Shown here piece by piece: positions 3,643 through 10,555 of a stretch of 24,000 bases of DNA. The position numbers were made by a program, and so were the translations under genes. Source of the DNA: Candidatus Colwellbacteria bacterium (lineage in GTDB: Bacteria > Patescibacteriota > Minisyncoccia > UBA6257 > Colwellbacteraceae); the NCBI GenBank assembly GCA_028718505.1, contig JAQULQ010000007.1, positions 6,353 through 30,352 of the forward strand. Direction: 5' to 3'. The notes beneath the pieces are model-generated. The model was not told the DNA's origin, did no database searches, and was given only the letters and a program-made list of their open reading frames with translations. Numbering within the stretch: position 1 is the first letter of the stretch; each line of letters opens with the position of its first letter.

Positions 3643-3716
3643 TGCCGGATCGTCTAATGGCAGGACGCCGCGCTCTGGACGCGGTAATCTAGGTTCGAGC
3701 CCTAGTCCGGCAGCCA
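3643..3716 (+). tRNA. tRNA-Gln (anticodon CUG), CCA encoded
   Basis: Acceptor TGCCGGA/TCCGGCA with the U1-A72 pair typical of bacterial tRNA-Gln. Anticodon arm is CCGCG-CTCTGGA-CGCGG with CTG at 3675-3677. T arm is CTAGG-TTCGAGC-CCTAG, followed by discriminator G and CCA. TGTATAAT lies upstream at 3627-3634. Confidence 0.9.
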
Positions 3717-8705: not shown

Positions 8706-8734
8706 TTGACAGAATATATTAATTGTGTTATAAG
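8706..8734 (+). promoter_or_regulatory. Near-consensus sigma70 promoter TTGACA-N17-TATAAG
   Basis: TTGACA at 8706-8711 and TATAAG at 8729-8734, about 135 nt upstream of the ATG at 8871. Confidence 0.7.
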
Positions 8735-8784
8735 CTGTGCTAGTTCTATTATAATTTCAATCTTTGCGACAAGTAGACAACCTA

Positions 8785-8863
8785 CAGGGTAAGGAAAGTG
8801 TTTATCAAATATTTGGTAGATACTTTCCTTACCTTGTACTCCGATCTGGGGGTAAGGAGAAAG
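8785..8863 (+). promoter_or_regulatory. Structured 5' leader with SD mimic / anti-SD / SD arrangement
   Basis: A 15-bp hairpin pairs CAGGGTAAGGAAAGT (8785-8799) with ACTTTCCTTACCTTG (8822-8836). The real SD region GGTAAGGAGAAAG (8851-8863) nearly duplicates the 5' arm. Confidence 0.55.
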
Positions 8864-8870
8864 AGGCACC

Positions 8871-9419
8871 ATGCCCGATCGTGAGACAGTTGATATCAGC
8901 GGCCTCTCCAAGGCAGCAGTTCTCGCTGTTCTCTGGAACCACTCGGCTCCCGCCGGAATGGGATTCCTCCAAGCGGCTCTCGGACCCAAAGACGGTATGA
9001 CGGAGGAGGCGGCTTGGGAGATCATCAAGGCCAATGTCGATCCGGACTATCCCGGGCCTCGCACCATGCGGGGAAGCAACCTCAGCTTCGAATACCTCTT
9101 CGGTAGGCCTCTGAAGATCGATCTCGTCGAGAACGAGTTCGATCCGTGGGGCTATGACCGGGACAATGGTGGCGACGGCACGGCCCAACGGATCATCAAC
9201 CAACTCCGTGAAACCGGCGAGGTCAATCCGCCGGAGGCACAGGCCGGACACCGCTCGAAGGTCATCCTCAACGCCCACAGGGCGATGGAGATGGTCAACA
9301 CCGTCTCGACTCTCGAGAAGGGCGGCGGCGTTGCCATATTCCACCTCGGTGCAGACGAGCTCGCCGAGCCGTTGGAGAAGGCCATAGACACTGTCGTCGA
9401 CCGTGTCGAGAGCAGCTGA
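8871..9419 (+). CDS. Hypothetical protein (GC-rich orphan b, 182 aa)
   Basis: Strong SD (GGTAAGGAG) with a GC-rich codon pattern. Overlapping minus-strand ORFs are shadows. I cannot assign a family. Notable motif: GRPLKIDL...FDPWGYDRDNGGDG. Confidence 0.65.
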   Translation: MPDRETVDISGLSKAAVLAVLWNHSAPAGMGFLQAALGPKDGMTEEAAWEIIKANVDPDYPGPRTMRGSNLSFEYLFGRPLKIDLVENEFDPWGYDRDNGGDGTAQRIINQLRETGEVNPPEAQAGHRSKVILNAHRAMEMVNTVSTLEKGGGVAIFHLGADELAEPLEKAIDTVVDRVESS

Positions 9420-9466
9420 TTCACTGACGGAACTCCGTCAAAGCGGCTGCGTCTACTTGTCGCATC

Positions 9467-9517
9467 CGCTTCCATAAATGTGTATTTATGCTGATGAGCT
9501 CAAAAGAGCGAAAAGCG
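9467..9517 (+). ncRNA. Hammerhead self-cleaving ribozyme, type III
   Basis: Stem III CGCUU/AAGCG. C17 at 9472. Stem I is 7 bp, CAUAAAU-GUGU-AUUUAUG. Core CUGAUGA at 9491-9497. Stem II is GCUC-AAAA-GAGC. Core GAA at 9510-9512. A15.1-U16.1 pair is present. Confidence 0.8.
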
Positions 9518-9547
9518 TTACTCTTCTATATAAATCATAGATTATTT

Positions 9548-9561
9548 CAGACCAAGGGGGT
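9548..9561 (+). repeat. Junction element A-like
   Basis: CAGACCAAGGGGGT, compared with CAGACCGGAGGGGT. Confidence 0.45.
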
Positions 9562-9572
9562 TTTTAATATCT

Positions 9573-9624
9573 AAAAAGAACGAGGCCCGCACCGGAAGAC
9601 GACACCGGTGCGAAACACTCGTTC
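9573..9624 (-). terminator. Intrinsic terminator of minus-strand operon (orphans c-d)
   Basis: Nested stems GAACGAG/CTCGTTC (9578-9584 with 9618-9624) and GCACCGG/CCGGTGC (9589-9595 with 9605-9611). The A-run at 9573-9577 reads as a U-run on the minus strand. Confidence 0.75.
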
Positions 9625-9646
9625 CTGATGTCGGCCCCAGTGAGGG

Positions 9647-9680: not shown

Positions 9681-10148
9681 TTACGATGATGCCGGAAAGA
9701 AGTGGGCGACGTGACTCTGGGGCACTCGCATAATGACACGCTGACCCTGCTCGAGCTTCAGGTCGGCCTCCGCCACGACTTCCGGGAGTTCGTCGCCGAA
9801 GGCAATGATCTCTGCCCTCTTAGCGTCGTCGGGGTACGAAACGATTACCCACTTGCCTTCATACTCCGGCTCCATGAGCTGTTCCTGGATACGAACCGGT
9901 ATAACCTGGATGACCTTGCCCCTCCCGTGAAGCACGTCTTCGAGCCAGTGAATGATCCTGCGCTGGAAGGACAGGATCGGGAAGACCGCCAGAAGGTTGC
10001 CAAAGACCATAGACAGCCACCACGGGCTGTGGCCGACCACTATCCACGCGATCGCGAAGAACCCGGGGAGGAAGAGGACCACGACGAGAAGGCAGAGGAT
10101 GAGTGTCAGAAGCGCCAGAAGCCTCAGAATATTGAGAAACGTTCTCAT
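9681..10148 (-). CDS. Hypothetical protein, 2 N-terminal TM helices + soluble C-terminal domain (orphan d)
   Basis: 155 aa with AGGAGG 8 nt upstream of the ATG. GC-rich and second in a two-gene operon. Confidence 0.6.
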   Translation of the reverse strand: MRTFLNILRLLALLTLILCLLVVVLFLPGFFAIAWIVVGHSPWWLSMVFGNLLAVFPILSFQRRIIHWLEDVLHGRGKVIQVIPVRIQEQLMEPEYEGKWVIVSYPDDAKRAEIIAFGDELPEVVAEADLKLEQGQRVIMRVPQSHVAHFFPASS

Positions 10149-10210
10149 TTCGAAAACCTCCTACTCGCGAATAGTCCAGAGATAACAGCTTATTGCGGCG
10201 TAGCGGGTGA

Positions 10211-10555
10211 TCAAAGTCCTCTTCTCGCGCGCTTGGAGGCTCTGATCTTTCTGATGAAGGCTCGCATCACTGTCTCAGGGTTGTCGCCCGGCTCGATACG
10301 CAAGACCGTCCCGTTCCAACTGGAGAGAACCGACGCATAAGCTGTTCTCGCTTTGTCCAGCTGGGACCGGACAATTTCACGCAGGAGCTGACCTGCATAG
10401 GGTTGATAGTAGAGGGTGTGCCCATAACCGGCATTGGGAGACTCCAGAATCGCCAGCAAAAGACTAGCGACGTCCTCTGGAATGCCTCCGTGCGCCACGA
10501 GGGCATTGACTTCCCTTTCAGCGTCTCGAACAGCCAATTCGTAGTTGCACGCCAC
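10211..10555 (-). CDS. Hypothetical protein (orphan c, 114 aa)
   Basis: GTG start at 10555, 8 nt after AGGAG. GC-rich and first gene after the conserved leader. Confidence 0.55.
   Translation of the reverse strand: MACNYELAVRDAEREVNALVAHGGIPEDVASLLLAILESPNAGYGHTLYYQPYAGQLLREIVRSQLDKARTAYASVLSSWNGTVLRIEPGDNPETVMRAFIRKIRASKRARRGL

Follow-up and report, generated by a model that had tools for sequence, protein, structure and literature searches.

The hammerhead locus

The window analysed here is a stretch of 24,000 nucleotides from a metagenome-assembled genome (MAG) of Candidatus Colwellbacteria (contig JAQULQ010000007.1, positions 6,353 to 30,352). It is ordinary chromosome, with genes for Nudix proteins, methyltransferases, an extracytoplasmic function (ECF) sigma/anti-sigma pair and a P-type ATPase. 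On its + strand, a gene for a 182-aa protein (8871-9419) is followed by a type III hammerhead ribozyme (9467-9517). This ribozyme ends a conserved single-gene frame, in which pairing between two distant boxes may well decide whether it folds. The gene and the parts of the ribozyme are as follows:

8871-9419, + strand: payload gene for a 182-aa protein of unknown function (open reading frame, homologs)
9467-9517, + strand: type III hammerhead ribozyme, predicted cut C9472/C9473 (motif, fold, covariation in 92 relatives)
9467-9471, + strand: stem III 5' strand, CGCUU (base check)
9472, + strand: C17 (base check)
9473-9490, + strand: stem I, CAUAAAU-GUGU-AUUUAUG, 7 bp with loop GUGU (base check)
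9491-9497, + strand: core, CUGAUGA (base check)
9498-9509, + strand: stem II, GCUC-AAAA-GAGC, 4 bp with loop AAAA (base check)
9510-9512, + strand: core, GAA (base check)
9513-9517, + strand: stem III 3' strand, AAGCG (base check)

An earlier note on this DNA, made from the sequence alone, had described a complete type III hammerhead. Each base that it listed is indeed present at its coordinate, and the structure is conserved and covaries in 92 distinct relatives (see below). The invariant core is complete at 9471-9472, 9491-9497 and 9510-9513 (C3 U4 G5 A6 N7 G8 A9, G12 A13 A14, a non-G at position 17 and the pair A15.1-U16.1). The hammerhead secondary structure is the minimum free energy (MFE) fold of the isolated 51-mer, the folding energy of which lies at z = -1.13 relative to shuffled sequences. 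A self-written type III descriptor matched only once in the whole window, at 9467-9517. When the window was shuffled 400 times with its dinucleotide composition preserved, relaxed matches occurred at a rate of 0.005 per window (both strands), and none was as good as the observed 7/4/5 bp.

The Rfam model RF00008 (Hammerhead_3) aligned with its positions 1-54 to 9465-9519 and scored 33.2 bits, with an E-value of 1e-5 for the 221-nt region searched. This does not reach the curated gathering score of 48.5 bits, which is an annotation threshold and not a biochemical criterion. For this reason, a standard gathering-threshold scan of the window lists only an RNase P RNA and a tRNA. The earlier note had counted a sub-threshold score of the hammerhead covariance model against the ribozyme. 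The score is sub-threshold, but the family as a whole scores low, and the covariation overrides this objection. By analogy with established hammerhead biochemistry, the mRNA would end in a 2',3'-cyclic phosphate after cleavage at C9472/C9473, and the RNA downstream would begin with a 5'-OH.

Conservation and covariation of the hammerhead family

DNA around homologs of the gene 8871-9419 was fetched and scanned for the ribozyme (L numbers denote individual loci). It follows such homologs in about ten other Patescibacteria genomes, where a type III hammerhead lies 47-109 nt past the stop codon (L001/L002/L003/L007, L004/L008, L005, L006, L009, L011, L014, L029 and L042). Metagenomic sequences were searched with a pattern that combined a short conserved box, located 5' of the ribozyme and referred to as 3' box in this text, with the catalytic core; it required CUGAUGAG and CGAAA and included none of the three stems. 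We found at least 120 matching loci. Among the matches listed, 109 of 123 raw matches fold as hammerheads, even though no stem was part of the search pattern.

An alignment of 92 distinct sequences (A2), mostly obtained with the pattern requiring CUGAUGAG and CGAAA, showed the core columns to be invariant, except for one CUGACGA with its change at the permitted position N7. The same catalytic core was found in 12 loci that had been reached via the protein and were thus free of the pattern constraint. Pairing was observed in 90.2% of the cells of A2, compared with 72.5% after shuffling, and changes on both sides of a pair occurred in 366 cells (125 ± 12 expected), a number reached by none of 500 shuffles. 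Such compensatory changes affect 17 of the 20 pairs. The pairing amounts to 98.4% in stem I, 99.7% in stem II and 79.6% in stem III, and it falls to 27-46% when the partner columns are slid against each other. For example, CAUAAAU/AUUUAUG in stem I is replaced by CAUGAGU/ACUCAUG, and GCUC/GAGC in stem II by GUCC/GGAC and GCUG/CAGC. The loops behave differently from the variable stems. Loop 1 reads U-G-Y-G-U and loop 2 R-A-A-A; several of their positions, namely U17, G18 and A41-43, are at least 90% conserved over the 92 sequences. Conserved loops on varying stems suggest a tertiary contact between the loops of stems I and II.

The RF00008 scores of the family members that were scored range from 23.6 to 41.6 bits. 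Since all of them stay below 48.5 bits, the whole family is invisible to routine annotation. We regard 9467-9517 as almost certainly a genuine, conserved hammerhead.

Two other kinds of hammerhead-like sequence were encountered. A Lysobacterales MAG (L022, 3750-3799) carries a type III hammerhead without the box about 270 nt past a homolog of the gene 8871-9419, together with a 13-nt upstream complement of different sequence (AGGGATACTTGGT/ACCGAGTATCCCT). It may be an independent or diverged form of the same logic beyond the Candidate Phyla Radiation (CPR). Phage-classified and metagenomic contigs (L087, 2291-2345 on the - strand; L089, 9007-9061; L114; L202) share the motif CTATTTGTCAAGTTTTAAAAACTAAGTCAAACTGATGAGGCTTCAATAGCCGAAA, which has a hammerhead core and a good stem II and lacks the type III stems I and III. 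It could represent a hammerhead with a different topology, and it has no relation to the CPR frame. A viral origin of the family was considered and rejected, as the three pattern matches on viral contigs belong to another motif, for which no type III hammerhead fold is obtained.

Two distant boxes and their probable long-range helix

The relatives share a frame with a constant order: promoter, leader, 5' box, structured 5' untranslated region (UTR), small open reading frame (ORF), anti-ribozyme arm, 3' box and hammerhead. As part of the explanation that we favour, this frame is probably a self-contained one-gene transcription unit that is common in Patescibacteria/CPR genomes. In the window, the two boxes are:

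8765-8778, + strand: 5' box, UGCGACAAGUAGAC, long-range partner of the 3' box or 'anti-anti-ribozyme' (complementarity, fold)
9451-9464, + strand: 3' box, GUCUACUUGUCGCA, with two alternative pairings, to the 5' box (ribozyme on) or within the local anti-ribozyme hairpin (ribozyme off) (complementarity, folds)

The 5' box is an exact 14-nt complement of the 3' box, 690 nt apart from it. Every locus has the box GUCU(A/G)CUUGUC 0-6 nt 5' of stem III and its complement GACAAG(U/C)AGAC in the 5' UTR. Of the 75 frames for which 1 kb or more of upstream sequence was available, 66 can form an in-register duplex of 10 bp or longer. The boxes are also matched frame by frame: a 3' box pairs with its own 5' box over 12.44 bp, compared with 10.94 ± 0.13 bp for 5' boxes of other frames (reached by 0 of 5000 permutations). 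Outside the conserved core, the extensions of the boxes covary, for example TGACAAGCAGAAGAA/TTCTTCTGCTTGTCA, ACAAGCAGATCATGAGCT/AGCTCATGATCTGCTTGT and TGACAATTCGTTCA/TGAACGAGTTGTCA.

Inverted repeats in the DNA would show covariation equally well, and we therefore compared the two kinds of mismatch in the core of the box helix. There are 18 G.U and only one A.C. On the evidence of the sequences, this 18:1 excess of G.U is a strand-specific RNA signature. The 14-bp box helix is part of both the MFE and the centroid structure of 8740-9520 in the window. A long-range RNA helix between the boxes is thus very probably real.

Because it often reads TTGACA, the 5' box was also considered as a -35 element. 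This was rejected: there is no consistent -10 element 17 nt downstream, the box in the window reads TGCGACA, and a proper promoter lies upstream.

An anti-ribozyme arm and the predicted gating of the hammerhead

Two elements lie between the stop codon and the 3' box:

9426-9439, + strand: small hairpin GACGGAACUCCGUC just 3' of the stop codon (folds; no U-run follows, so it is not terminator-like)
9441-9451, + strand: anti-ribozyme arm AAGCGGCUGCG (MFE of 9420-9580 and of the last 160 nt)

Within the arm, AAGCGG (9441-9446) pairs with CCGCUU (9466-9471) and UGCG pairs with CGCA (9461-9464). The arm sequence AAGCGG mimics AAGCG at 9513-9517, the 3' strand of stem III in the hammerhead. The MFE structure of 9420-9580 is this competing hairpin, and the hammerhead is lost in it. 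In 44 of 62 frames, an equivalent arm ties up the 3' box together with the linker and the 5' strand of stem III. It covaries with the linker and stem III strand of its own frame (7.21 compared with 6.43 ± 0.10; 0 of 3000 permutations). The proposal in the earlier note that a competing helix could act as a switch is supported by these data, as AAGCGG/CCGCUU is the copy in the window of an arm that is retained across frames together with its target. That model covered two-thirds of the device: the competing helix was recognised correctly, but the 5' box at 8765-8778 had been missed.

Minimum-free-energy folding was applied to full-length RNAs of 470-1180 nt, which begin with the 5' box and stop where the hammerhead ends. 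The end-to-end box helix is present in the MFE structure of 52 of 63 full-length RNAs, and the complete hammerhead in 46 of 62. When the 18-nt 5' box was scrambled, the hammerhead remained in only 9-10 of the 62; 36-37 lost it and none gained it. A control scramble of 18 nt elsewhere in the 5' UTR left the number at 46. Folded on their own, the last 160 nt gave the hammerhead in 3 of 62 frames, while the hammerhead sequence alone folded correctly in 54. The window follows the pattern of the family. Its 3' fragment folds into the competing hairpin, and the full-length RNA (8740-9520) contains both the box helix and the complete hammerhead in its MFE and centroid structures (z = -6.3 compared with shuffles). 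On these folding models, we lean towards the view that pairing of the boxes gates the cleavage.

The box helix is retained in the MFE structure after cleavage in 51 of 62 frames. A switch of partners upon cleavage, from the end-to-end helix to the local hairpin, was rejected, since it was predicted in only 2 of 62 frames. We also rejected a coupling of 5' box pairing to the exposure of the Shine-Dalgarno sequence, on which the pairing had no effect in silico (p = 0.36).

The ribozyme module apparently takes the place of a terminator

According to the earlier note, the gene 8871-9419 lacks a convincing intrinsic terminator on the + strand, and self-cleavage could define or process its 3' end. 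Both statements agree with our results. No + strand terminator was found after 9419 in the window, and the hammerhead follows homologs at a distance of 47-109 nt in about ten genomes. Distant full-length homologs without a hammerhead have strong terminators, consisting of a hairpin and a U-run, 30-65 nt past the stop codon in 11 of 19 loci. Within the frames, a terminator-like site occurs up to 150 nt past the hammerhead in only 6 of 60. Since most of the hammerhead-less homologs use terminators and few frames have one, the ribozyme module appears to take the place of the terminator. It would create the mRNA's 3' end after C9472, and in the folding models the box helix could protect this cleaved end.

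We also considered whether another class of ribozyme replaces the hammerhead at the distant homologs. This was rejected, as no other class was found at Rfam gathering thresholds in 40 loci and terminators are present there instead.

In four homolog loci (L011, L014, L029 and L042), a small CACGG...CCGUG hairpin lies in the 3' UTR about 60-70 nt past the stop codon, 5' of the 3' box, and is followed by the U-rich tract UGUGUUUU or AUGUUUUU. Such a hairpin could serve as a weak internal terminator, and short mRNAs ending there might then coexist with long, ribozyme-cleaved ones.

Promoter, leader and 5' UTR of the frame

Upstream of the gene in the window we noticed the following elements:

8706-8734, + strand: putative sigma-70-type promoter, TTGACA (8706-8711), 17-nt spacer, TATAAG (8729-8734) (read from sequence)
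8750-8755, + strand: second possible -10 element, TATAAT (sequence)
8783-8859, + strand: structured 5' UTR with a long hairpin (8783-8838) in which CCUUACC (8827-8833) pairs with GGUAAGG (8788-8794) (fold and sequence)

A consensus scan did not list the promoter at 8706-8734 because its -10 element ends in G. In about 40 sibling frames, a TTGAC-N17-TATAAT promoter is located at an equal relative position upstream of the 5' box, and a conserved leader hairpin usually lies between the two. Since promoter and leader are upstream of it, the 5' box should be transcribed, about 45-50 nt into the RNA.

In the leader region, about 45 nt between promoter and 5' box, the hairpin often holds a GACAAG/CUUGUC pair of its own, for example CTTTTGTTGACAAGTTGAG...CCTTGTCCGAAAG (frames such as L116, L151, L197, L111 and L093). 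The box helix is thereby repeated on a small scale, and this version could compete for the 5' box, which would introduce a further layer of mutually exclusive pairing. The window and L001 have no leader hairpin.

The 5' UTR of the window contains a second GGUAAGG (8851-8857), which overlaps the Shine-Dalgarno sequence AAGGAG (8854-8859); in the predicted fold, the upstream duplicate at 8788-8794 could act as an anti-anti-Shine-Dalgarno element. In sibling frames, the 5' UTR matches RAGATH-10 (RF03147). The model is satisfied in L110 (2387-2472, 88.5 bits) and L142 (176-256, 43.4 bits), and matches of about 32 bits were found in L004 (208-284), L107 (1028-1105) and L158 (184-260). The 3' strand of P1 in RAGATH-10 overlaps the Shine-Dalgarno sequence in sibling frames. 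RAGATH-10, in which P1 closes a three-hairpin junction and ends in GAGGAGAAAG, was not matched in the window between 8600 and 8900 at E-values up to 10. The 5' UTR at 8783-8859 is a degenerate counterpart of it, in which only the P1-like remnant CCUUACC/GGUAAGG-AGAAAG is left.

A portable frame with variable payloads

The frame is not tied to one gene. Homologs of the gene 8871-9419 occur in only about 18 of 103 frames, and the longest ORFs of the frames fall into at least 25 unrelated clusters of 50-270 aa. In 40 frames with at least 3 kb of flanking sequence (such as the window, L001, L004, L042 and L191), the payload ORFs are richer in G and C (GC) than their flanks, with a GC content of 0.543 compared with 0.483 (33 of 40 frames, Wilcoxon p = 1.6e-5). 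The window is an extreme case, as the gene 8871-9419 has a GC content of 0.62 and the remaining window one of 0.47. This systematic excess explains the 'GC-rich module' in which the earlier note had placed the gene, and it suggests a foreign origin of the payloads or special constraints on their codons or structure.

Some payloads (L142, L107, L189 and L134) gave sub-threshold Pfam hints at roles in conflict or as accessory genes, namely Tad4 anti-Thoeris (21.9 bits, threshold 25), an Xre/MbcA/ParS antitoxin C-terminal domain (18.1, threshold 24.5) and an Rce1-like/CPBP protease (20.4, threshold 22.4). A PADLOC search of the payload proteins gave nothing convincing.

Frames can also occur in tandem. 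In L004, which is on the same contig as L008, a second complete frame lies right behind the first (1074-1606). It comprises a promoter, boxes that read GACAAACAGAG (5') and CTCTGTTTGTC (3') and, at 1550-1606, a hammerhead. A homolog of the gene 8871-9419 is missing from it, and its ORFs do not exceed 52 aa, so that its payload may be a small peptide or a non-coding RNA. Further tandem frames are present in L179, L205 and L208. Several frames or homologs have tRNA genes directly beside them (L005, 1242-1316; L182, 89-170 and 1720-1792; L206, 727-799 and 2128-2202; a tRNA array in L052), which is compatible with tRNA-proximal insertion hot spots.

The payload gene of the window and its surroundings

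The earlier note had called the gene 8871-9419 an orphan. This description has to be dropped, as we found 121 homologs, the closest with 74% identity. None of the homologs has a Pfam domain, and the protein itself had no match in Pfam, PHROG, NCBIfam or PADLOC. An AlphaFold2 model of high confidence (predicted local distance difference test score, pLDDT, of 91) had no fold match in the PDB. A single phage protein (A0A1S5V012) matches the N-terminal domain (E-value 3.8e-4).

Downstream of the hammerhead, a long hairpin AACGAGGCCCGCACCGG...CCGGTGCG...CTCGTT is located at 9586-9625, followed by CTTTTTAG on the minus strand; it resembles a terminator that would serve a convergent gene on that strand. 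Beyond this hairpin, the GC-rich stretch has two overlapping ORFs, 9681-10148 (-) and 9702-10340 (+), neither of which matches any family. The 'two GC-rich modules' of the earlier note are the GC-rich payload gene and a neighbouring, probably convergent, gene. We saw no integrase or prophage context.

Two other structured RNA genes are present in the window. One, at 1184-1598 (114.8 bits), is a class A bacterial RNase P RNA; compared with the Rfam consensus, about 35 nt are inserted into one of its early hairpins. The other is a tRNA gene at 3643-3713 (57.4 bits). On the related Patescibacteria contig L001, a LOOT RNA (RF03000, 84 bits) at 1368-1481, about 4.5 kb upstream of the gene and its hammerhead frame, adjoins genes resembling T4 endonuclease IV, a KAP NTPase and an HNH nuclease.

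Proposed mechanism and its alternatives

The explanation that we favour, and consider probable as a whole on the strength of sequence comparison and folding models, is a functional hammerhead that ends the frame, is licensed by 5'-3' pairing and makes a protected 3' end. Three mutually exclusive pairings would control the ribozyme. The arm after the stop codon, which copies the stem III 3' strand and part of the box, would sequester the 3' box and the stem III 5' strand and keep the ribozyme off. The 5' box lies 0.4-1.5 kb further upstream (690 nt in the case of the window); it would pair with the 3' box over 12-18 bp and dissolve the inhibitory hairpin, so that the hammerhead could fold and cut after C9472. 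The product would be an mRNA with both ends joined in a helix and a short 3' tail that terminates with a 2',3'-cyclic phosphate. In this lineage, the module would replace the intrinsic terminator of sister lineages and both define and protect the 3' end. We infer that the RNA actually cleaves itself, that pairing gates this step in vivo and that formation or stabilisation of the 3' end is its purpose. A more far-reaching version is put forward tentatively, at slightly less than an even chance. It would be a natural allosteric hammerhead, licensed by a kilobase-range end-to-end mRNA helix, in a device of three parts, namely the anti-ribozyme arm, the 3' box with the ribozyme and the 5' box as anti-anti-ribozyme, used in Patescibacteria as a portable frame for many unrelated, GC-rich and probably horizontally acquired small genes, with replacement of the intrinsic terminator, and the state of the RAGATH-10 5' UTR would possibly decide about the cut.

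Several points weigh against this explanation. The Rfam score is under the curated cutoff for the copy in the window and for every family member examined, the metagenomic sample was chosen by the 3' box and the catalytic core, and the sequences share a phylogeny, so that the permutation counts overstate their independence. The covariation of the arm is significant yet small (7.2 compared with 6.4 nt). The evidence for gating comes from MFE folding of RNAs of 470-1180 nt, which is unreliable and blind to co-transcriptional kinetics; kinetically, the adjacent arm should form first. Despite the 5' box, the local (off) state is kept in the MFE structure of 10 of 62 frames. In 4 of 10 hammerhead-bearing homolog loci, the 3' UTR contains a weak hairpin and a U-rich tract. 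Nor do the folds point to a regulatory purpose of the gating: cleavage does not change the predicted ground state, and scrambling of the 5' box does not affect the accessibility of the Shine-Dalgarno sequence in silico (0.346 compared with 0.363, p = 0.36).

One alternative is a constitutive hammerhead, which would always cut and thereby end the mRNA or separate it from downstream or antisense transcription. The box helix would then stabilise the product or serve as a stalk for a double-strand RNase, as in rRNA precursors, and the arm would be a protective 3' hairpin without any gating. Persistence of the end-to-end helix after cleavage (51 of 62 frames), correct folding of the isolated hammerhead (54 of 62) and the small effect of arm covariation agree with this, as does the transcript processing proposed for bacterial hammerheads that flank single genes (PMC3088659, PMC6765202). 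Nevertheless, we consider it unlikely. A purely protective hairpin has no need to overlap a ribozyme strand. The arm reaches specifically across the variable linker as well as the 5' strand of stem III, and it covaries with both; moreover, it is only upon scrambling of the 5' box that the predicted hammerhead fold drops from 46 to 9-10 of 62. Gating logically implies a regulated decision, and the 5' box adjoins a conserved structured 5' UTR that sequesters the Shine-Dalgarno sequence. The ribozyme could thus be a negative regulator, with glmS as a precedent (PMC6765202), in which cleavage removes or exposes the 3' end and leads to decay. The 5' box would then sense the conformation of the RAGATH-10-type 5' UTR, with a ligand, a protein or a ribosome bound, and expression would be tuned by mRNA turnover that depends on the ribozyme. 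We find this rather improbable: the predicted Shine-Dalgarno accessibility does not respond to the scramble (0.346 compared with 0.363, p = 0.36), no ligand or partner is known, sister lineages have plain terminators, and a cleaved product that keeps its paired 3' region and a cyclic phosphate fits protection better.

If the boxes were instead terminal inverted repeats or recombination sites in the DNA of a mobile cassette, similar to miniature inverted-repeat transposable elements (MITEs) or integron attC sites, RNA pairing would be a by-product. The inverted repeats do enclose a variable, GC-rich payload, the same gene and frame are found in differing neighbourhoods (L001 and L002 differ upstream), and tRNA genes lie beside several frames. 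But DNA repeats would not be expected to show 18 G.U and one A.C mismatch in their core. Besides, the boxes are not the termini of an element, as promoter and leader lie outside the 5' box and the hammerhead outside the 3' box, no transposase or integrase is consistently adjacent, and the family was not matched in the viral collection; this alternative is very unlikely. Even less probable is a circular, viroid-like or retrozyme-like RNA that arises when cleavage is followed by joining of the paired ends. RtcB accepts cyclic-phosphate hammerhead products as substrates, the box helix brings the 5' and 3' ends together, and some contigs (L004, L179, L205, L208) carry tandem frames. However, there is one ribozyme per unit and no second one was found in the leader or 5' UTR, so that the 5' end, about 45 nt upstream of the box, would carry a primary triphosphate. 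Neighbouring hammerheads in tandem frames have stem III strands that are not interchangeable (in L004, UUUCGCU/AGCGAAA and UCUUCACU/AGUGAAGA), and the units are DNA-encoded with promoters of their own. Finally, a functionless chance match to the hammerhead consensus would account for the sub-gathering Rfam score and for the z of -1.13 of the 51-mer. It has next to no probability and is refuted by the comparative data: shuffled windows contain 0.005 relaxed and no strict matches, and the motif, which recurs at the same position in about ten genomes and among over 100 loci from metagenomes, shows compensatory changes in each of its three stems.

Significance and comparison with known systems

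With more than 100 natural examples, the family offers bacterial hammerheads with a clear conserved architecture and a specific, falsifiable mechanism, in which the ribozyme would need paired mRNA ends to fold. A plausible job for the ribozyme is the production of a protected 3' end at the place where related genes have a terminator, and the family ties the orphan Rfam motif RAGATH-10 to a complete functional unit. It also shows that the Rfam gathering threshold hides this entire family from routine annotation, and it draws attention to small accessory genes of an unexplored class in the reduced CPR genomes. If the gating holds true, the frame would be a compact natural design for the control of mRNA ends by a ribozyme, of the kind engineered in synthetic biology.

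The ribozyme shares with type III hammerheads (RF00008; clan CL00010) the full core, the pairs G10.1-C11.1 and A15.1-U16.1, capped stems I and II and an open stem III. It differs from the Rfam model in its stem II loop, which has 4 nt (RAAA) instead of 8, and in being encoded in the chromosomal DNA of CPR bacteria, unlike the hammerheads of viroids, satellites or retrozymes. Perreault et al. (2011, PMC3088659) described bacterial and prophage hammerheads of all three topologies. They flank single genes of inconstant identity, and their function was given in that paper as unknown. Like the hammerheads described here, they border a short transcription unit with a variable gene, and processing to single-gene mRNAs was proposed for them. 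Our frames differ in that each unit has its own promoter, a single 3' hammerhead, a box helix and an anti-ribozyme arm, and no integrase or prophage context was seen here. Bacterial genomes contain thousands of self-cleaving ribozymes, hammerheads among them. Beyond glmS, their roles are called largely elusive in a review from 2019 (PMC6765202), which cites processing of 3' UTRs and polycistrons among the ideas.

RAGATH-10 (RF03147; Weinberg et al. 2017, PMC5737381) corresponds to the 5'-UTR element of the sibling frames L110 and L142. The name stands for RNA associated with genes associated with twister and hammerhead ribozymes; the main text of that paper does not mention RAGATH. Through RAGATH-10, the 5' UTR of the frames has already been catalogued as associated with ribozyme-linked genes. 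Its model comprises 82 nt beside the Shine-Dalgarno sequence, without the 5' box and without the 3' module, and it leaves the 5' UTR of the window unmatched. In the literature searched, we found neither RAGATH-10 by name nor a relevant link of hammerheads to Saccharibacteria, Patescibacteria or the CPR.

The discontinuous hammerhead in the 3' UTR of mammalian Clec2 genes (PMC6765202) resembles the present ribozyme in its location and in its dependence on distant RNA segments that have to meet. The Clec2 ribozyme is split by an insertion, whereas the one described here is contiguous and a separate long-range helix is predicted to relieve an inhibitory hairpin. Neither for the box helix nor for the anti-ribozyme arm did we find a description in the literature searched; an earlier one may exist. 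What we describe is thus a known class of ribozyme in a conserved, long-range and apparently allosteric architecture for which no earlier description was found.

End-to-end pairing is also a feature of the hok/sok system. The hok mRNA folds back from its 5' to its 3' end (fbi/tac), and mutually exclusive helices decide the fate of this small-protein mRNA. The change is brought about by slow exonucleolytic trimming of the 3' end, without a ribozyme, and it is translation that is controlled. In the frame described here, by contrast, a ribozyme is involved and no effect on the Shine-Dalgarno sequence is predicted. The intrinsic (Rho-independent) terminators of the same gene family share with the ribozyme module the position 30-110 nt past the stop codon and a base-paired 3' end of the mRNA. 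They differ in how this end is made: the module has no U-run, and its 3' end would arise by self-cleavage instead of release by the polymerase and would carry a cyclic phosphate.

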